Source: an uncultured Methanosarcinales archaeon
GTDB taxonomy: Archaea; Nanobdellota; Nanobdellia; Woesearchaeales; DSVV01
Assembly: GCA_964593285.1 (NCBI GenBank)
Contig: CAZQHZ010000008.1
Span: 1-58,741 of the forward strand
DNA: 58,741 nt
Direction of reading: 5' to 3'
Shown: in pieces, positions 31,226-40,416 of the stretch
How positions within the stretch are numbered: position 1 is the first letter of the stretch
How the letters are laid out: each line of letters opens with the position of its first letter
Notes under the pieces: model-generated
Told to the model about the DNA's origin: nothing
What the model saw: the letters and a program-made list of their open reading frames with translations, nothing else
The model's database searches: none
Position numbers and translations under genes: made by a program

Positions 31226-33013
31226 ATGGTATTTACATTAAAAAGAACAAAAAATTGCAATGAATTAAGGCAAAAAGATATTGATAATGAAGTTATTTTA
31301 AATGGATGGGTTCATTCTAGAAGAGATCATGGTGGAATAATATTTATTGATTTACGAGATAGATTTGGTTTAACTCAAATAGTATTTGATCCAAAATTTG
31401 ATGAAAAAAGTCATATTGAAGCTGAAAATTTACGAAGAGAAGATGTTATTGCAGTTAAAGGCAAAGTTTTTAATAGAACAAAAGGCATGGAAAATGAAAA
31501 ATTAGATACTGGTAAAATTGAAGTTTATATTAATTCTTTAGAAATTGTAAGCAAAGCACAAACACCACCAATTGAAATAGATGATAGAATTATTGCAGGA
31601 GATGAATTAAGATTAAAATATAGATACTTGGATTTACGAAGACCAGTTATGCAAAATAATTTATTATTTAGACATAATGCATTAAAGATTACAAGGGATT
31701 TTTTTAATAATAATAATTTTTTAGAAATTGATACACCTCTTTTAATTAAATCAACACCTGAAGGTGCACGTGATTATATTGTTCCAAGTAGAGTTAATGC
31801 AGGTAAATTTTATGCACTCCCACAATCTCCTCAATTATATAAACAAATTTTAATGATTTCTGGTGTTGATAAATATTACCAAATTGCAAAATGTCTTCGA
31901 GATGAAGATTTAAGAGCAGATAGACAGCCAGAGCATTCACAAGTTGACTTTGAAATGAGTTTTGTTGATAGCCAAGATATTATGAATTATGTTGAAGAAT
32001 ATTTATGCCATTTATTTAAAAAATTAAAAAATATTGAATTAAAAAGACCTTTTAAAAAATTAACATATGAAGAATCAATGGATAAATATGGAACAGATAA
32101 GCCAGATTTAAGATATGGCTTAGAAATGTTTGATGTTACAGAAATTGTAAAAAATTCTACTTTTCAAGTTTTTAATAATGTTATAAAAAATAATGGTATA
32201 ATTAAATGTATAAATCCAGAATATGAATTTAAAAGAAAAGAAATTGATTCATTAATTGATTTTTGTATAAAAAATGGTTCAAAAGGTATGGCGTGGATGC
32301 GCTTTACTGATAAAGGCTTAGAATCAAATATTGAAAAATTTTTTAGTAATGAAATTAAACAAGAATTACTAAAAAAAATAAATCCAAAACCAAATTCAAT
32401 ATTAATGTTTATTGCTGATGAAAAAAATAAAGCAAATAAAATTATTAGTGATTTAAGATGTGAATTAGCAAAAAGAATGAATTTAATTGATGATAATAAA
32501 TTTGAGTTTTGCTTTATTACAGATTTCCCATTATTTACATGGAATAATGATGATGAAAAATGGGAGCCAGAACACAATATGTTTTCAATGCCAAAAAAAG
32601 AGCATTTAAAATATCTTGACACAAATCCAAAATTAGTTAAAGGAGATCTATTTGATATTGCACTAAATGGTATTGAAATAGCATCGGGTGCAATTCGTGT
32701 TCATGACCCAAAAATTCAAAAAAAAATTATGAATATTATTGGAATAAATGAAAATGAAGCACGAGATAAATTTGGATTTTTATTAGAGGCATATAAATAT
32801 GGTGCACCTGTTCATGGTGGCATGGGTATTGGTTTTGATAGATTAATTGCATTAATGCTAAAAACTAATGATATTAGAGAAGTAATAGCATTTCCAAAAA
32901 ATAAAAATGCACAATGTCCAATGGATAACTCCCCTGGTAGTGTTAGTGAAGCACAATTAAAAGAACTACATATAAAAAAACAATTTATTAAAAAAGAAAT
33001 AAATAAAAATTAA
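31226..33013 (+). CDS. aspS: aspartyl-tRNA synthetase, bacterial type, probably non-discriminating
   Basis: RRDHGG, STPEGARDY, ALPQSPQLYKQ, RDEDLRADRQPE, GAD insertion, HGGMGIGFDR, VIAFPK. Confidence 0.96.
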   Translation: MVFTLKRTKNCNELRQKDIDNEVILNGWVHSRRDHGGIIFIDLRDRFGLTQIVFDPKFDEKSHIEAENLRREDVIAVKGKVFNRTKGMENEKLDTGKIEVYINSLEIVSKAQTPPIEIDDRIIAGDELRLKYRYLDLRRPVMQNNLLFRHNALKITRDFFNNNNFLEIDTPLLIKSTPEGARDYIVPSRVNAGKFYALPQSPQLYKQILMISGVDKYYQIAKCLRDEDLRADRQPEHSQVDFEMSFVDSQDIMNYVEEYLCHLFKKLKNIELKRPFKKLTYEESMDKYGTDKPDLRYGLEMFDVTEIVKNSTFQVFNNVIKNNGIIKCINPEYEFKRKEIDSLIDFCIKNGSKGMAWMRFTDKGLESNIEKFFSNEIKQELLKKINPKPNSILMFIADEKNKANKIISDLRCELAKRMNLIDDNKFEFCFITDFPLFTWNNDDEKWEPEHNMFSMPKKEHLKYLDTNPKLVKGDLFDIALNGIEIASGAIRVHDPKIQKKIMNIIGINENEARDKFGFLLEAYKYGAPVHGGMGIGFDRLIALMLKTNDIREVIAFPKNKNAQCPMDNSPGSVSEAQLKELHIKKQFIKKEINKN

Positions 33014-33072: not shown

Positions 33073-34623
33073 ATGTCATTAGAAGATTTATTAAAAAGAA
33101 AAAATATTTCTAAAAAAGATAAAAAAGAAATAAACGATTTAATTAATTTAAAAAATAAATATGAAAATTTAATTAATTTAATTCCAGAAACAATATATGA
33201 ATCTGATTTAAAAGGAAATTTAACTTTTGTTAACGACAAAGCTTATTCTATGTTTGGTTATTCTAAAAAAGACACAATAAATAATTTAAATATTTTAGAT
33301 ATGGTTTTAGATGAAGATAAAGAAAAGGTTAAACAAAATATTTCTAAAATTATCTTTAAGCATACTACTTCACTAAACGAATATCAATTAATTAAAAAGG
33401 ATAAAAATGTTTTTCCTGCACTAATTCATTCAATTTTAATTAAAGAAAATGAAAAACCAAAAGGTTTAATGGGTTTAATTATTGATATTAGTAATATAAA
33501 TAATTTAAAAGACGAATTAATAAATGAATTTAATTACAAAAATGCCATTATCAATACAATTCCAATATATATGGTTACTATTGATTCAAATAAAAATGTA
33601 ATAACAATGAATGATATTTTATTAGATAAACTTGGTTTTTCACTAGATGAAGTTATTGGTAAAGATTATATTGAAAATTTTATATTAGAATCAGATAAAA
33701 AAATAGTAGATAATATGTTTAATGAAATAATAATAAACAAAAAAGCAACAAATAATCAAAACTATATTTTAACAAAAAATAAAGATAAAATTTTTGTAGA
33801 TTGGTATGCAAAACCTGTTTTTAATTCAAAAAATAATTTAGATTTTTTTTTAGGGCTAGGCATAGATATTACTGAAAAAAATTTTTTGTATGAAAAAATT
33901 TCTGAAATTGATAAATTAGATTCAATTGGACATTTAGCTTCTGGAATTGCACATGATTTTAATAATATTTTAACTGGAATTAGTGGTTATAATGAATTAT
34001 TATTATCTAAAGAAAAAGATGAAAAAAAAATAAATTATCATAAAAAAATTTCTAAAATTTGTGATAAAGGTTCTAGTTTAACAAAAAAACTATTAACCTT
34101 TGGTAAAGGCAATAATTTAAAATTTGAAGAATTAAATTTAAATGAAATTGTTGAAGATGTTTATACTATCATAAAACCTTCAATTAAAGAAAATATAATT
34201 TTAAAAAAAGATTTATCTGAAAATATTTATAATATCAATGGTGATTATTCAAAATTAACACAGTTAGTTTTAAATTTATGTGTTAATGCAAATGAAGCGA
34301 TTAAAAATGAAGGCATTTTAAGTTTAAAAACTGATAATGTTTCACTAAATGAATATGATTTATTAAAATTACCTTTTGGTAAAACTGGAGATTATGTTTT
34401 ATTAAACGTTGAAGATACAGGAATTGGCATTTCAAAAGATTTACAAAAAAAAATTTTCAATCCTTTCTTTACAACAAAACAAAATTATGAAAAAAAAGGA
34501 ACAGGTCTTGGTCTTAGTGTTGTTTATGGTATTGTAAAATCACATAATGCAATTATCGATGTTAAGTCAGAAATTAATAAAGGAACTTCTTTTGATATAT
34601 ATTTTCCAAAAATAAATTATTAA
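33073..34623 (+). CDS. PAS-PAS sensor histidine kinase (no receiver domain)
   Basis: two PAS/PAC domains; H-box GIAHDFNNIL; NLCVNA, DTGIGI, FNPFFTTK, GTGLGL. Confidence 0.93.
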   Translation: MSLEDLLKRKNISKKDKKEINDLINLKNKYENLINLIPETIYESDLKGNLTFVNDKAYSMFGYSKKDTINNLNILDMVLDEDKEKVKQNISKIIFKHTTSLNEYQLIKKDKNVFPALIHSILIKENEKPKGLMGLIIDISNINNLKDELINEFNYKNAIINTIPIYMVTIDSNKNVITMNDILLDKLGFSLDEVIGKDYIENFILESDKKIVDNMFNEIIINKKATNNQNYILTKNKDKIFVDWYAKPVFNSKNNLDFFLGLGIDITEKNFLYEKISEIDKLDSIGHLASGIAHDFNNILTGISGYNELLLSKEKDEKKINYHKKISKICDKGSSLTKKLLTFGKGNNLKFEELNLNEIVEDVYTIIKPSIKENIILKKDLSENIYNINGDYSKLTQLVLNLCVNANEAIKNEGILSLKTDNVSLNEYDLLKLPFGKTGDYVLLNVEDTGIGISKDLQKKIFNPFFTTKQNYEKKGTGLGLSVVYGIVKSHNAIIDVKSEINKGTSFDIYFPKINY

Positions 34624-34795: not shown

Positions 34796-34812
34796 TTATA
34801 ATAACTTAAAAA
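34796..34812 (+). repeat. 17-bp direct repeat, left copy (right copy 40357-40373)
   Basis: TTATAATAACTTAAAAA at both flanks of the island, with weaker similarity extending on either side. Confidence 0.5.
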
Positions 34813-34880
34813 TTTTATTCTAAACCATATTAATATCACACTTTTTACTATATCTATAAAAGTTTTTGTAGTATTTTACG

Positions 34881-34908
34881 ATTTCAATTAATTTTTGTTA
34901 TACGCAAT
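34881..34908 (-). other. dif-like (Xer-type) recombination site 1
   Basis: minus strand ATTGCGTATAA-CAAAAA-TTAATTGAAAT; 11-6-11 layout resembling bacterial dif GGTGCGCATAA-TGTATA-TTATGTTAAAT. Confidence 0.6.
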
Positions 34909-35091
34909 TAAATTTTCACTAGTCTAAATCTCATTCTTCTTTTAGAAAAAGAAGCAAAAGAGGGGGAGTCCAGGTGCTACGCACATATTGCCTTTTACTT
35001 CGTAAAAGAAATTTATTAAGAGGGGGCTTTTAGTCCTTCGGACAGATAGTCTTTTTCTAAGAAAAAGAAATTTATTTTCACTAGACATTTA
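34908..35091. repeat. left structured end: inverted-repeat arms and modular hairpins
   Basis: TTAAATTTTCAC 34908-34919, GAGGGGGAGTCCAG 34960-34973 and AGAGGGGGCTTTTA 35019-35032 all pair with the right end. Confidence 0.85.
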
Positions 35092-35172
35092 TCAACACAG
35101 ATTATTTAAATAGGGTATTTTTCCAAAAAGTAAAAGCAAAACTTTAAATAGGGATTAGTCTACTTTGTATAT

Positions 35173-35316
35173 ATGCCTGTAACAAAGGATAGTACAACTA
35201 TTAGAATTCACAATAAAACAAAATCTAAGCTAGAGAAATTAGATTTTGTGAAAAAATAAACTTATGATGAGATCTTAAATTACCTAATAGAATACTATGA
35301 AAAAAGAGGGAAATAA
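35173..35316 (+). pseudogene. RHH-type small regulator/antitoxin-like gene with in-frame stop
   Basis: MPVTKDSTTIRIHNKTKSKLEKLDFVKK*TYDEILNYLIEYYEKRGK; TAA at 35257-35259; terminal TAA abuts the MTase ATG. Confidence 0.7.
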
Positions 35317-36549
35317 ATGAAACAAATTTTACAAACGCAGTTATTAGGCACATTTCAATTAAATGGTTCTCTAGATATTCATTCTTGGTATAATTATCTT
35401 GCTGGATACTCCGCAGAATTTGTTAAAAAAATCTTAGAGGAAGAAAATATTACTCCTGACAATATTGTTCTAGATCCTTTTTGTGGGGTTGCTACTACAA
35501 ATATCGTTTGCAAAAAAGCCAATATTCAAAGTGTAGGTATTGAAATAAATCCTTTTACTTCATTCGTAGCAAAAACAAAATTATTTTGGGATTTCACAGA
35601 AAAAGAATTAAGTAGTAATTATTCTAATTTTTTTAAACAAATTAATAAAATAAAGAAAACTAAAAAATTTAAATCGAATAATGATTTACTTAATAGAGCA
35701 TTTAGTCCAAAAATTTTAAATGAATTATTAAAAATAAAAGAGACCATTAATAATTTTAAATTAGTTGGTAAAAAAAAAAAATTAAGAAATTTATATTTGC
35801 TATGTCTTATTTCTATATTAAGAGAAGTTAGCAATTACGAAAGTTTTAGTCCTTATTTGAAAAGAAGAGAAACCATGCTAAAAAACGCACCAGTGATTGA
35901 GATATACCAAAATAAATTAAAAAAAATGATGGTTGATTTATATAAGGTTAAAGACAATAAAATAAATCCTGAAATATACAATACTAGTGCAAAATCCTTA
36001 GACTTTTTAAATCAGATTTTTGATGTAGTAATTACTTCTCCACCATATTTGAATAATTGGGATTATAGTTGGATTACAAAAATTGAATTATTTTTTCTTG
36101 ATTATGCTCAAACTAATGAAGATTTAAATAATGGTTTTAGAAAAAATTTAATTAAAAGTTCAACATACCTTTTAAATAATTCAGAACCAGAATTATTGTT
36201 ACCTGAATCTAAAATAAAAAAAGAAATTCTTTCAGTTGTTAAGAAATTAAAGAAAAAAAGATTAATGAAGAAGAATGGAAAAAAATATGATATTATGCTA
36301 ATTGAATATTTTAATGACATGTTTTTAATTTTGAGAGAGATTTATAAGAAAATGAATTATGGAAGCAAAAACATTTGGGTTGTTGGAGATTCAGGATTAT
36401 ATGATGAACATATTAAAACTGATGTTTGGATAGGAAATGTTTCAGAACTAGTGGGCTTTAAATTTTCTAAATGTGATGTTCTGAGGGAAAGAAAAGCATC
36501 AAGACATAAAATTAAATTAAGGGAAAGTGTAATTTATATGGAGAAATAA
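35317..36549 (+). CDS. DNA amino-methyltransferase 1 (probably N4-cytosine)
   Basis: IHSWYNYLAGYS, VLDPFCGVATT, VITSPPY, VVGDS. Confidence 0.9.
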   Translation: MKQILQTQLLGTFQLNGSLDIHSWYNYLAGYSAEFVKKILEEENITPDNIVLDPFCGVATTNIVCKKANIQSVGIEINPFTSFVAKTKLFWDFTEKELSSNYSNFFKQINKIKKTKKFKSNNDLLNRAFSPKILNELLKIKETINNFKLVGKKKKLRNLYLLCLISILREVSNYESFSPYLKRRETMLKNAPVIEIYQNKLKKMMVDLYKVKDNKINPEIYNTSAKSLDFLNQIFDVVITSPPYLNNWDYSWITKIELFFLDYAQTNEDLNNGFRKNLIKSSTYLLNNSEPELLLPESKIKKEILSVVKKLKKKRLMKKNGKKYDIMLIEYFNDMFLILREIYKKMNYGSKNIWVVGDSGLYDEHIKTDVWIGNVSELVGFKFSKCDVLRERKASRHKIKLRESVIYMEK

Positions 36550-36551
36550 AA

Positions 36552-38597
36552 ATGGTATTTCAGATTAATAAACAAAGAATGTATCATATGCCCCATAATA
36601 CAGCTTTATTAAACGAGTTTAAATTTTTATTAGAAGTTATAGACGAGGAAAAATCACAATATACTTTCAAAGAACTTGTAAAACTCCTACTTTTAGAGCA
36701 AATTAAACAAGATAGATTTAAGGAATTTCATGGGAATATGCCTTATAGAATTTTTACTCAAGAAATTCCTCCTGATAAAGATGACTTAATCAAGAAATTT
36801 AAGAAAATTCGTTCTAATCGAACAAAACCCAACGGAATGCCAGATTGGTTATTTAACCTAATTACTAAAAAAAGTGTTGAAGAAGCAACTAAGAAATTAA
36901 TTGAAAAAAGAAAAGAATCGTATAATAAGTTTGTTCAAGATCCTGAAAACAGAATTGATGATTTTTTGAATTGTCAGTATAAACCAACAAAAACATGGAA
37001 ACAAAATTGGGTTGAATTTGTTAGGGATTATGTTGATTTTGCCGCATATTGTGGTTTGATCCCTTGCTATTACAAATTACCTGGAGAAAGGAGTAGTGAA
37101 GAAGATGGTTATGTTGTATCAGAAAAATTGAAGGAATATAAAAGAGGGAATTTTGATTTAAAAGACATTATTTTTCATTTCAAGTATTCAAACTCTTCTA
37201 TTAATACAAGGAGATATACACAATTTAACATACGGGTAAGACCATTTTATTTAGTATTAAGATTATTAGATGGATTAGAAAAAAAGGGAGTTGCTAAAGT
37301 AGAAAGAAGACTTTTATTTGGAGCTATCAGTTGCTTTAAATCTGAAGATGAAATCGAAGATGCAATAAAATTTATTAGTAACTTTATTGATAAAAATGAT
37401 AATCTTCTTTCTGAGAAAAATTTCTCTTCTCAAATTTCTAAGGAAGCAAGCAGAGTAGCAACAGGAATGCTTCCTTTTTTAGAAGGTCTCAATCTAATTG
37501 AATGCATTAAAGATAGAGGTATTAGTTTTTTCAAAATTACAGACGAAGGAAAAAAGTTATTATCATCCTATCCTTCCAATAGTTTATTTTTTGGTCAATA
37601 TGTTAAAGGTATATTCTATTCTCCTTTATTGGCAAGATTGCTTAATATATTTGCTGATTGCGTAAAAAATGAGGAATCTAAAATAGAGATTAAGATTCTT
37701 AAAGAGAAACTTAAAATAAGTCAAACTGAAATTTTTGATCAAGTGTTATCTGATTTACTATCTTTAAAACCATGTCCGATTATAGAAATAAAGAAAGGGA
37801 TTGTTTACCTTAATGACTTGTCTTATCAATATTCAGTAACTCCATTTGTAGATTTTGCCTCATTAAAAGAAGCAGAATATGTTATTAAGGGGGGAATTCC
37901 CTTTAAGGCAACAAAATTAAAGAAAATAGAGTTACCAGATAGCGAATTATTAAAAGAGATTGAATCAAGAGCACTATCTGATGATGGATCAAAATACGAA
38001 GAAATTTTAGAAACAGCATTGAAAAAATTACCTGGATTAATAAAGAGATTTGGGCAATCATCTAGTTTTACTCGTTTAAGTGATGTGGTTTGGCTTGTGG
38101 ATGTTCCAATAGATGGGAAATTTAAGAAAGTACTTACAATAATTGAAGCAAAAGCAGGTAAAGCAATTAAATCATTCAAAGAGACAAAGGAGATAGAAGA
38201 TATAAAAAATACAATATTAGAATTTAAAGAACATTTTACAGATCTTTATGGCGTTTGGATTCTTATAGTTGATAGCGATCAAATGCCCTCAATTAATAAA
38301 CATGGAGGATATAGGGGAGCAGGAAAATATCAATTATCTTTTAGAGATAAGTTATTAAGAATACATCATAATATTTTAACCTCATTTGGTAAACCCGTAT
38401 TAGTTACTGGTTTTGATGTTTATTCTTTTATTGAATATTACAAATATCTTTATTCTAATTTGTATAGTTCTTCTGATACTACAATCCATGAACACGTGGA
38501 ACAGTTCTTTATGAGAGGAAATTTATTTTTTGATGATTATAGATATATAAAAGTAATAAATGATGCAAATGAAATAAAATCACAATTATTTATTTAA
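36552..38597 (+). CDS. putative restriction endonuclease (C-terminal PD-(D/E)xK)
   Basis: lies between two MTases; KYE...SDVVW..IIEAKAG nuclease-like motif; RPF and ITDEGKK wHTH-like features. Confidence 0.65.
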   Translation: MVFQINKQRMYHMPHNTALLNEFKFLLEVIDEEKSQYTFKELVKLLLLEQIKQDRFKEFHGNMPYRIFTQEIPPDKDDLIKKFKKIRSNRTKPNGMPDWLFNLITKKSVEEATKKLIEKRKESYNKFVQDPENRIDDFLNCQYKPTKTWKQNWVEFVRDYVDFAAYCGLIPCYYKLPGERSSEEDGYVVSEKLKEYKRGNFDLKDIIFHFKYSNSSINTRRYTQFNIRVRPFYLVLRLLDGLEKKGVAKVERRLLFGAISCFKSEDEIEDAIKFISNFIDKNDNLLSEKNFSSQISKEASRVATGMLPFLEGLNLIECIKDRGISFFKITDEGKKLLSSYPSNSLFFGQYVKGIFYSPLLARLLNIFADCVKNEESKIEIKILKEKLKISQTEIFDQVLSDLLSLKPCPIIEIKKGIVYLNDLSYQYSVTPFVDFASLKEAEYVIKGGIPFKATKLKKIELPDSELLKEIESRALSDDGSKYEEILETALKKLPGLIKRFGQSSSFTRLSDVVWLVDVPIDGKFKKVLTIIEAKAGKAIKSFKETKEIEDIKNTILEFKEHFTDLYGVWILIVDSDQMPSINKHGGYRGAGKYQLSFRDKLLRIHHNILTSFGKPVLVTGFDVYSFIEYYKYLYSNLYSSSDTTIHEHVEQFFMRGNLFFDDYRYIKVINDANEIKSQLFI

Positions 38598-38598
38598 A

Positions 38599-39408
38599 AT
38601 GGTAAACAACAAATTAAACGATATGACTGGAAAAGAGTGGATTAAATTTACTAAAACGTGGTTTGTTCATGATCCTCCTTCAAGAAAGAAAGATGAGATG
38701 TTACATCCTGCCAAATATCCTGAAACAATGATAGTAGATTTCATAAAATTTTTTACAAAAAAATCTGAAGTAGTTTTTGATCCCTTTCTTGGAACTGGTT
38801 CAACATTGGTAGCATGTAATATGACTGGTAGAAATGGAATAGGAATCGAAATAATGGAAAAATATGCTAAAATAGCAAAAGATAGATTAAAACAAAAATC
38901 TTTAATTGATCAAAAACATATAGTAATCGAAGGCAATTCAATGAATACAGAATCAATTTGGAAAGAAAAAAAACTTTCTGAAGTAGATTTTATTATTACA
39001 TCTCCACCTTATTGGAATATGCTTAAAAAAAGTAGGGGTAATGTTAAGACTACCCAAAAGATTAGAGCAGAAAATGGTTTAGATACCCATTATTCTGATA
39101 ATCCTGATGATTTAGGTAATATTGATTCTTATGAAGATTTCATTGAAAAGTTAGGAAGAATATTTGATAAGATATATAAGATACTGAAGAAAGGGAAATA
39201 TCTTGTTGTTATAATCCAAAATCTAAGGATAAATGGTGAGGTAAAACCTCTTGCATGGGATGTTCAAAAAAGAATATCCAAGAAATTCACATTTAAAGGT
39301 GAAAAGATTTGGTGTCAAGATAAAAAACAATTAGGTATTTGGGGTTATCCATCTGTATTTATACCTAATTATCACCACCATTATTGTTTAATTTTTAGAA
39401 AGGATTAG
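38599..39408 (+). CDS. DNA amino-methyltransferase 2 (probably N4-cytosine)
   Basis: HPAKYPE, VFDPFLGTGST, IITSPPYW, HHYCLIFRK. Confidence 0.92.
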   Translation: MVNNKLNDMTGKEWIKFTKTWFVHDPPSRKKDEMLHPAKYPETMIVDFIKFFTKKSEVVFDPFLGTGSTLVACNMTGRNGIGIEIMEKYAKIAKDRLKQKSLIDQKHIVIEGNSMNTESIWKEKKLSEVDFIITSPPYWNMLKKSRGNVKTTQKIRAENGLDTHYSDNPDDLGNIDSYEDFIEKLGRIFDKIYKILKKGKYLVVIIQNLRINGEVKPLAWDVQKRISKKFTFKGEKIWCQDKKQLGIWGYPSVFIPNYHHHYCLIFRKD

Positions 39409-39420
39409 GTTTTCTCACCC

Positions 39421-39626
39421 TAAATGTTCTTTTAGAAAAAGAACCAAAAGTAAAAGCCCCCTCTATTTTCTTTTTTTAGAAAAAAGAAACAAAAAATCTG
39501 GATTCCCCCTCAGTCCAACGGACATATAGTCTCCTACGGAGAAATTTATTAACGTGAAAATTTAACTCTTCGCCATTTTTTTGCTTCGCAAAAAACCGTC
39601 TTGCAGACTATGGCTCGGTCTTAGCA
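39421..39626. repeat. right structured end: inverted-repeat arms and modular hairpins
   Basis: TAAAAGCCCCCTCT 39451-39464, CTGGATTCCCCCTC 39498-39511, GTGAAAATTTAA 39554-39565; hairpins GTCC-AAC-GGAC, CTCC-TAC-GGAG, TTTTTTGC-TTC-GCAAAAAA. Confidence 0.85.
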
Positions 39627-39655
39627 GACGCGTATAACAGCGAGCGATGTTATAT
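39627..39655 (+). other. dif-like (Xer-type) recombination site 2
   Basis: GACGCGTATAA-CAGCGA-G-CGATGTTATAT; shares GCGTATAACA with site 1 in inverted orientation; one extra base. Confidence 0.55.
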
Positions 39656-39729
39656 CAATTTTTTGATTTGAAAACAAAAAGAAAAAGTACCAAAAAATTT
39701 AAATATATATTACCAAATTGTTTATATAA

Positions 39730-40146
39730 ATGGAAAAGAATAATAAATTTTTTAAGATTTATTTTATATTAGTACTAGTTTATGCAATTATCGGATTGTT
39801 AGATTCTTTTGTATTCTCCGGAATGAAAGAAACATTTGGACAAATTTCTACCATTTGGATGATTATTGGATCATTATTTGGACTTATCAAATTTATTTTA
39901 AGTATAATTGCATTAATAATTTTTATTAAAAAAAAGTTTTCAAAAATTACTTTAGTGATTCCTATTTATCATCTTGTAGCAACAGTGTTATTATTCATTT
40001 ACGGGTTTGCTTGGGGCATTTTATCTGCCGTGCAGGGGAATTCAATTAATGAACAATTAATACCTCCTGGAATGATTGCTATTGGAATAATATCTTCATT
40101 ATTTGAATTAATATTTTCAATTTATATTTTATCAAAATTTAAATAA
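39730..40146 (+). CDS. hypothetical four-TM membrane protein
   Basis: 138 aa with four hydrophobic helices. Confidence 0.75.
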   Translation: MEKNNKFFKIYFILVLVYAIIGLLDSFVFSGMKETFGQISTIWMIIGSLFGLIKFILSIIALIIFIKKKFSKITLVIPIYHLVATVLLFIYGFAWGILSAVQGNSINEQLIPPGMIAIGIISSLFELIFSIYILSKFK

Positions 40147-40339
40147 AGACCGTTTTTCGTAAATTTATTTTATGGATGCAAATTTTCAGAACTTTACTTC
40201 GCTTTTAGCTATAAACTAACTTAACAACAAGCAATTTTATTGATTGTGATTTTATTTTGGATTTGTTTTATACACATATTATTTTTAAGATGTATTTCAT
40301 ATTAATTCCTCAATATATAGCTATTAAGAATTTTTATAA

Positions 40340-40367
40340 CTCTGACATAATATAACTTATAATAACT
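40340..40367 (-). other. degenerate dif-like site 3
   Basis: + strand CTCTGACATAA-TATAAC-TTATAATAACT; 11-6-11 layout with ATAA/TTAT inner dyad. Confidence 0.35.
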
Positions 40368-40416
40368 TAAAAACTTTCTAAAATTTTATAAATACTTCTC
40401 TTTTTCTTACTTACTA

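Follow-up and report, generated by a model that had tools for sequence, protein, structure and literature searches.

Integrons are known from 75 archaeal genomes in nine phyla, DPANN Nanoarchaeota among them, according to the part of PMC9668308 on which all our statements about archaeal integrons draw. Most of these integrons are integrase-less clusters, restriction and methylation are among the common cargo, and the six archaeal integrases all have the IntI-specific domain, as the search tool requires it (PMC9668308). Integron recombination is held to need this domain (PMC9668308, citing Messier and Roy 2001), and a cluster of attC sites lacking integron-integrases (CALIN) is defined by a minimum of two attCs separated by less than 4 kb (PMC9668308). 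Here, we report a restriction-modification operon in a stretch of 58,741 nucleotides (nt) from a DPANN archaeon (contig CAZQHZ010000008.1; the whole stretch is called the window). Positions 34898-39649 are in all likelihood a decayed integron-type gene cassette with that operon (a controller-like open reading frame [ORF], a methylase, a presumed endonuclease of 681 amino acids [aa] and a second methylase). As a cassette, it is a member of a published kind, the archaeal integrons as covered in the part of PMC9668308 used here, and the supplements of that paper may list these genomes. An earlier note on this DNA had proposed Xer-exchanged modules and did not know such an array to be described; archaeal integrons, with DPANN Nanoarchaeota and restriction and methylation cassettes among them, are in that paper of 2022.

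The region was scored in the genome from which the window comes (G000; 1,181,486 bases, 38 contigs). The earlier note had set the operon between two inverted Xer-type sites, site 1 (34881-34908, minus strand) and site 2 (39627-39655, plus strand), and both strings are found there. Common to the two is an exact inverted 10-mer, TGTTATACGC (34896-34905) against GCGTATAACA (39630-39639), which has two copies in the window and two in the whole genome, i.e., both here. Five inverted matches with information of at least 6.0 are common to the two intergenic regions of the operon, and none of 2,000 Markov-1 resamples of these regions equaled this. Among the five are an exact inverted 14-mer pair (35019-35032 and 39451-39464; the G5/C5 boxes) that flanks the operon and an inverted 12-mer pair (34908 and 39554) beside the 10-mer, and short G+C-rich hairpins and common modules crowd both intergenic regions. 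On the comparative sequence evidence, the match between the two main motifs is real, because a cassette of another genus (G017) begins, right behind an intact attC, with the very 23 nt found from 34897 onward. The observation of the earlier note was sound at its core and over-read in its details.

Relatives were searched in a set of 27 other genomes of the same family, of which G024 is complete (single contig). A DNA search (E ≤ 0.01) gave matches to the left intergenic region in 16 genomes and to the right one in 22. The match in G021, a genome of a different genus with unrelated cargo, runs at 94% over 184 nt and ends inside site 2. Matches in G024 cluster in 30 kb (G024:C1:836-866 kb; L048/L049), where a gene for a 286-aa tyrosine recombinase is followed by cassettes. 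Their cargo includes a type I restriction-modification system with GmrSD, a LemA-like gene, an AlwI-like endonuclease with two methylases, an unknown gene, an AAA ATPase with an Hsp70-like protein, a GNAT acetyltransferase, and others. The sites between these cassettes have the form …TAAC-A-GCGATT…(80-300 nt)…AATCGC-GAT-GTTA…. An alignment of twelve such attCs, drawn from three genera, has a 16-bp stem; 95.3% of its cells are paired, and both sides have changed in 9 pairs (0/500 shuffles as high; slid controls, 29-45% paired). The stem has a 2-nt bulge on the 3' side, and AAC and GTT are invariant (12/12). Throughout the arrays of G024, G012 and G017, the attCs lie on one strand. A covariance model built from the relatives' sites (R1) detects attC sites in 14 of the 27 genomes. 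A regular-expression attC finder was also tried on the window genome and rejected, its 143 matches being noise in A+T-rich DNA.

A cassette of an integron begins, after G|TT, with the complement of the R'' box of its own attC, because the circle was opened inside the R box. This rule is followed perfectly by eight of nine adjacent pairs in the relatives; R' and R'' within one attC match at only 1-4 of 6 positions. The single misfit predicted a missed attC with given R''/R' boxes, which was then found (L049, 12112-12419; by eye and with R1). With the predicted site and the junctions on the recombinase side (attI), 15/15 pairs fit (G024, G012, G017 and G011; the G011 pair, GAACTTAAC versus GTTAAGTTC, was read from the printed sequence). 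The window fits as well, with G|TTATACGC at 34897 against R'' GCGTATAAC at 39630 (6/6 variable positions; 9/9 including GTT). In G017, the cassette with the identical 23-nt start ends in GTGAAAATTTAAC…GCGTATAAC with an intact attC, and its cargo is two membrane proteins, with no restriction-modification operon. A copy of the 23-mer with three mismatches follows a mini-attC beside the recombinase gene in G016. Because the rule fits and both start and end match those of other cassettes, 34898-39649 is read as one cassette. The observations behind this reading are the complementarity rule in relatives and window, the identity of cassette starts and ends across genera with different cargo, the covariation in the attC stem, and the accessory nature of the cargo. 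The features of the cassette borders, in order along the window, are as follows.

34796..34812 and 40357..40373, plus strand: left and right copies of a 17-nt direct repeat, TTATAATAACTTAAAAA (100% over 17 nt; E 0.04 against the genome)
34821..34897, plus strand: E1, a genome-specific repeat of about 100 nt ending in TTTTTG, in place of the relatives' attC
34897..34905, plus strand: R' box GTTATACGC, the first bases of the cassette; crossover G(34897)|TT(34898); reverse complement of R'' at 39630-39638
34908..34919, plus strand: outer inverted repeat, left arm TTAAATTTTCAC, 12/12 complementary to 39554-39565
34935..35076, plus strand: boundary modules of the 5' end, with hairpin CTTCTTTT-AGA-AAAAGAAG, G5 boxes, and two units of hairpin-CAnATnG-hairpin-GAAATTTATT (34974-35017 and 35033-35076)
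39425..39551, plus strand: boundary modules of the 3' end, with two T/A hairpins, C5 boxes, and one hairpin unit ending in GAAATTTATT
39554..39565, plus strand: outer inverted repeat, right arm GTGAAAATTTAA, pairing with 34908-34919
39566..39629, plus strand: G+C-rich structured insert between outer repeat and R'' (94% identity over 184 nt in G021; 78-82% in G024 and G009)
39630..39638, plus strand: R'' box GCGTATAAC, the identical 9-mer being R'' of intact attCs in G021, G024 and G017
39639..39648, plus strand: collapsed centre AGCGA|GCGAT, with spacers kept and L''-loop-L' gone
39649..39655, plus strand: R' box GTTATAT, start of the next segment; crossover G(39649)|TT; 20/31 identical to a G024 cassette start
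40347..40355, plus strand: R''-like TAATATAAC, inside a third site of the earlier note; 5/6 variable positions complementary to GTTATATCA at 39649; weak

The window has R boxes of the AAC...GTT type with crossover G|TT at 39630-39638 and 39649-39655. Between the two halves, where the window has AACAGCGA|GCGATGTT, G021 has a 135-nt hairpin. Three sites collapsed in a similar way lie in the tail of the G024 array, so collapse looks like the usual route of decay of these attCs. The outer inverted repeat recurs in its design in cassettes of G017 and G024, and the structured insert shows compensatory changes between genomes (GCCA/TGGC versus GGAA/TTCC; GTCT/AGAC versus CAC/GTG and TTCC/GGAA). Homologous boundary modules lie at cassette ends in G024, G012, G001, G006 and G011. 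At both ends of the window cassette, the hairpin modules are rich in runs of T and A, in an orientation independent of the genes. At a guess, the boundary modules might be bidirectional terminators or insulators with a promoter-like GAAATTTATT box.

A second inverted pair of G5/C5 boxes (34960-34973 and 39497-39510) matches at 13/14 positions, and the G024 arrays are dotted with similar boxes of genome-specific sequence (GGGGAGTTC and GGGGCGTC). Two other readings of the boundary DNA were dropped. ARAGORN called a tRNA-Arg(TCT) at 39398-39473 (minus strand), overlapping the end of the methylase (split/intron tRNA); Rfam gave no match at the gathering threshold or at E ≤ 10, and a T/A hairpin accounts for the "anticodon arm", so that the call is probably spurious. 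A gene for a small RNA behind the GAAATTTATT box found no support (folds of four stretches, z -1.3 to -1.8) and was given up once the DNA-site reading fitted.

The left border differs from those of the relatives in ending on E1. The window genome has four copies of this repeat (on C8, C10:48800-48892, C4:48359-48450 and C36:2150-2252), each ending TTTTG|TTA. Past its final G|TT, the C36 copy agrees with a G024 cassette start at 37/41 positions, and the C4 copy with another such start at 25/32; because these two copies run into such starts, E1 is placed where an attC would stand. It may be a diverged A+T-rich attC, a favoured secondary target, or a miniature inverted-repeat transposable element (MITE). 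At C10:48799-49023, next to an RpoK-like gene, the E1 5' motif CTAAACCnnATTAATnTCAC recurs inverted about 200 nt downstream, a MITE-like outline. Contig C17 (1-100) begins a few bases inside sequence like a cassette start (40/66 to G024), and C36, which is 3.5 kb long, holds its E1 copy and the cassette start within 2150-2290. The genome assembly seems to break at these repeats (C17 and C36).

A number of results count against the cassette. Its left neighbour is E1, with no recognisable attC or attI, and the cassette rule, tried on the C4 and C10 copies of E1, gave nothing convincing. The 10-mer alone is borderline, as 118/2000 (5.9%) Markov-1 resamples of the two intergenic regions reach equal information. 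On the window site (39628-39658), R1 scores 19.3 bits (E 0.17), yet this is the best match in the 166 kb searched locally; R1 returned no intact attC of the family type from the window genome as a whole (0 matches at E ≤ 1). The L''/L' stem, which folds as a hairpin in the relatives, is gone in the window. With one collapsed, weakly detectable site, and with neither E1 nor the 40347 motif recognised by R1, the window lies below the CALIN definition. The bacterial R-box consensus is RYYYAAC / GTTRRRY. GTATAAC and GTTATAT each depart from its strict form at one position, and the relatives vary likewise. In the arrays themselves, the rule is broken once (read by eye), at a junction that follows attC 8 in the decayed G024 tail, and the G024 cargo genes are almost all antisense to the attCs, unlike those of most integrons. 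No empty site, circle or polymorphism was seen; the search, with the protein of the kinase gene that precedes the operon, led to one locus of 24% identity in metagenome contigs, with no close relative among them, and to a best match of 38% among 40 relatives. The homologous operon in L058 (below) has neither attC nor such sites.

These points have to be set beside three other accounts of the locus. In Acinetobacter, pdif modules hold accessory genes between inverted short motifs resembling Xer arms and are served by a Xer-family recombinase, and the earlier note had read the window in that way, with XerA exchanging dif-like duplex sites of 28 bp whose orientation alternates. The two motifs are indeed inverted, their common arm ATTGCGTATAA has the look of a Xer-binding arm, and the recombinase of the family is XerA-like. 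However, only the "left arms" of sites 1 and 2 are common to them; the "right arms" (TTAATTGAAAT and CGATGTTATAT) are unrelated, and that of site 1 belongs to the repeat E1. Site 2 is 29 nt long and reaches the 11-6-11 format only with a 7-nt spacer, and in the relatives its "arms" are separated by the hairpin of 80-300 nt. Whereas pdif sites are 28-bp duplexes alternating on plasmids, the sites here are long hairpins in direct arrays, and the window has one split site: what the earlier note took for two inverted sites is the R'/R'' complementarity of one attC opened at G|TT. The alternation it described is absent from the relatives, where all sites are direct, and the 10-mer is present at no other accessory boundary in the window genome. 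Its third site (40340-40367) depends on the 7-nt ATATAAC (40349-40355), complementary to GTTATAT at 39649, a match plausible by chance in DNA of 22% G+C. No attC follows the R''-like motif at 40347-40355; the third site is thus weak. The Xer/dif module account, largely refuted by the intact homologous sites, is very improbable.

The exact 17-nt direct repeat at 34796 and 40357 suggests another course, in which a single-piece island of 5.6 kb (about 34813-40373), or a MITE-like composite with E1, was inserted, the inverted 10-mers being internal to it; the C10 copy of E1, with its 5' motif inverted about 200 nt away, would suit the latter. We think this quite improbable, as the repeat is A+T-only, there is no integrase or transposase inside the island, and the identity of the inner junctions with the cassette ends of other genera would be left unexplained. 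Least credible is chance similarity in A+T-rich intergenic DNA, or palindromes of a terminator or operator of the operon. The resampling result for the 10-mer alone and the unremarkable single-sequence folds (the z-scores above) agree with it, but five matches of such strength were never equaled in the resamples, and the conservation across genera, up to 94% with unrelated cargo and with the 23-mer identical in G017, has already contradicted it. The decayed integron-type cassette is the reading that we retain. Two points of the earlier note are borne out by it, namely that the inverted motifs are remnants of tyrosine-recombinase sites and that they delimit a horizontally acquired defence operon.

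The earlier note was also right that the window holds no recombinase, as none was found among its proteins. The array-side enzyme of G024 has its best PDB match in XerA of Pyrococcus abyssi (4a8e; 6.6e-36, 127 bits, one continuous stretch) and also matches 5hxy; Vibrio IntI4 is matched in two stretches that skip chain residues 187-236, which we take to be the place of the IntI-specific domain. Its nearest NCBIfam model is that of archaeal XerA (201 bits; cut-off, 220), and it scores 163 bits against the integron-integrase model TIGR02249, under the cut-off of 265. Seventeen homologs in the family are 260-300 aa long, and 17/17 align without an insertion at the place of the IntI-specific domain. 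No canonical IntI was found in the five array-bearing genomes (5/5; TIGR02249 below cut-off, matches split at profile positions of about 180-235), a search without a positive control, since 14 control genomes also stayed below the TIGR02249 cut-off. A complete integron, with an IntI that has the additional domain, was found neither in the window, which has no recombinase, nor in these array-bearing relatives, whose array-side enzymes are without the domain. The Xer proposal of the earlier note thus named the right enzyme family, the site-linked recombinase of the relatives being of the Xer family with XerA as its best PDB match, and was wrong about architecture and type of site.

In G024, G011, G012, G017 and G016, the recombinase gene adjoins the attC arrays and is divergent to them. 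A conserved junction at which the arrays start, TAATAnnTG|TTA followed by cassette-type sequence, lies upstream of the gene in 14 of 17 regions, including that of the window genome. In at least 12 draft genomes, a contig ends 150-450 nt upstream of the gene, which is the expected effect of a repeat array. The earlier note had called for the XerA homolog to be identified, and the window genome has one such gene outside the window (C5:138-915), 137 nt from the contig start and just behind the junction ATTAATACATG|TTAGGCAAAATTT. An apparent frameshift, perhaps an error of the assembly, splits this gene within an A7T4 run. A dif site sought beside a short recombinase on contig C9 was rejected, since the GCGTATAA match falls within coding sequence. 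Whether the integron-like platform of this DPANN family runs on a plain XerA-type recombinase without the extra domain of IntI, encoded 100-250 nt from the junction TAATAnnTG|TTA where cassettes with hairpin attCs begin, with the window cassette as its stranded product, is in our estimate an even call. No second such recombinase was found in the single-contig genome of G024 (E ≤ 1e-10). Because the enzyme is the only one of its kind found in that complete genome, it may serve both chromosome resolution and cassette capture; otherwise, it may represent a surviving stage between Xer and IntI.

The inverted pair would have arisen as follows. While the cassette is a free circle, a single attC would fold as single-stranded DNA, and its R box would have GTTATACGC as one strand and GCGTATAAC as the other. 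A tyrosine recombinase would cut between G and TT, and the circle would open and join a chromosomal G|TT. In the product, the cassette would begin with TTATACGC and end, on its 3' side, with the complement of this sequence, R'', which is the pair seen in the window. Insertion may have taken place at the G|TTA that ends E1, which would be the attC stand-in of this lineage or a secondary target. The enzyme was presumably the XerA-like recombinase of the family, whose copy in this genome lies on C5 next to its own junction site. The window attC would later have lost its L''-loop-L' hairpin, leaving AGCGA|GCGAT. The cassette is probably now fixed in place, because the attC hairpin is gone.

The cassette lies in archaeal DNA of 22% G+C that encodes TFE, aspartyl-tRNA synthetase (AspRS) and a PAS histidine kinase (ending at 34623) before the operon, with a 138-aa membrane protein and then a metallophosphoesterase downstream of it. 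The genes of the operon and the membrane protein gene are as follows.

35173..35316, plus strand: small ribbon-helix-helix-like ORF, likely the controller; in-frame TAA at 35257-35259; the fold class is our own reading, with no database match
35317..36549, plus strand: DNA methyltransferase-like protein, 410 aa (PF01555, 3.8e-8, partial)
36552..38597, plus strand: 681-aa protein, presumed restriction endonuclease; no known family; role suggested by its place between two methylases
38599..39408, plus strand: N6/N4 DNA methyltransferase, 269 aa (PF01555, 1.9e-30)
39730..40146, plus strand: 138-aa membrane protein, possibly a second cassette; no family match; patchy

The operon is accessory, since the 681-aa protein occurs in 0/400 other genomes of the order and the G+C content across 35-40 kb is raised (0.25-0.29 versus about 0.22 for the genome). 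The 681-aa protein has no match in Pfam, NCBIfam or PDB and 22 other relatives among 5.8 billion proteins, all without annotation. Its homologs in genome contigs lie at three loci, the closest of which (L058, 45%) has a homologous operon with a comparable small ORF before it. Homologs of the 410-aa methylase lie inside cassettes of G024 and G012 (33% and 26% identity). The two halves of the small ORF at 35173-35316 join as a plausible 47-aa protein; a pseudogene, an assembly error or readthrough is possible, and small controller-like ORFs also stand at operon starts in the G024 array. The membrane protein has homologs in 2 of the 27 other family genomes, with no cassette motif beside them. The aspartyl-tRNA synthetase (31226-33013) has a GAD domain (PF02938, 9.1e-18), which in this enzyme is of bacterial type and notable in an archaeon. 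Between 34600 and 40500, two microbial-mat metagenome runs, possibly the source of the DNA, contain 0.97 of the sampled words; two runs of one such mat study contain 0.41 and 0.21, which could reflect strains without part of the region.

Compared with the integrons described in the part of PMC9668308 drawn on here, the family platform has the hairpin site, the inverted R boxes with AAC and GTT, the crossover G|TT, and cassette starts complementary to their own R''. It likewise has arrays in one orientation, a divergent tyrosine recombinase with a junction site, defence cargo, and sites that resemble each other within a lineage (PMC9668308). Unlike integrons, it has a neighbouring recombinase without the IntI-specific domain and R boxes off the strict RYYYAAC. 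Its cassettes add an outer inverted repeat of 12-18 bp and a structured insert of 40-75 nt 5' of R'', its cargo is often antisense to the site, and the window site is collapsed and isolated, below the number needed for a CALIN. Some elements exploit Xer as folded single strands, e.g., the cholera toxin phage CTX, for which plain Xer acts on a single-stranded DNA hairpin and one strand pair is exchanged. The mechanism would match if a XerA-like enzyme drives the arrays; CTX-type elements, however, are single phage genomes that integrate at dif and form no cassette arrays. Chromosome resolution by archaeal XerA/dif, in the part of PMC8371274 used here, is alike in that the family recombinase is most similar to XerA, and unlike in that dif is a single 11-6-11 site per chromosome, in place of a gene beside a junction and then cassettes. 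A full-text literature search that covered few subscription journals found no paper tying attC arrays to a Xer-type recombinase without the IntI domain.

For the window itself, the result is modest, accounting for the arrival of the operon in a core part of a small archaeal genome and for its probable fixation there. The lead of interest is the family-wide platform on a XerA-like recombinase, which lies outside the window. By the definition used in surveys, an integrase has the IntI-specific domain, so that arrays of the present kind pass for integrase-less. If these attCs are handled by the XerA-like enzyme, natural parts would be at hand to test whether integrons arose from Xer systems, and the exchange of defence genes in DPANN archaea would gain a concrete mechanism.

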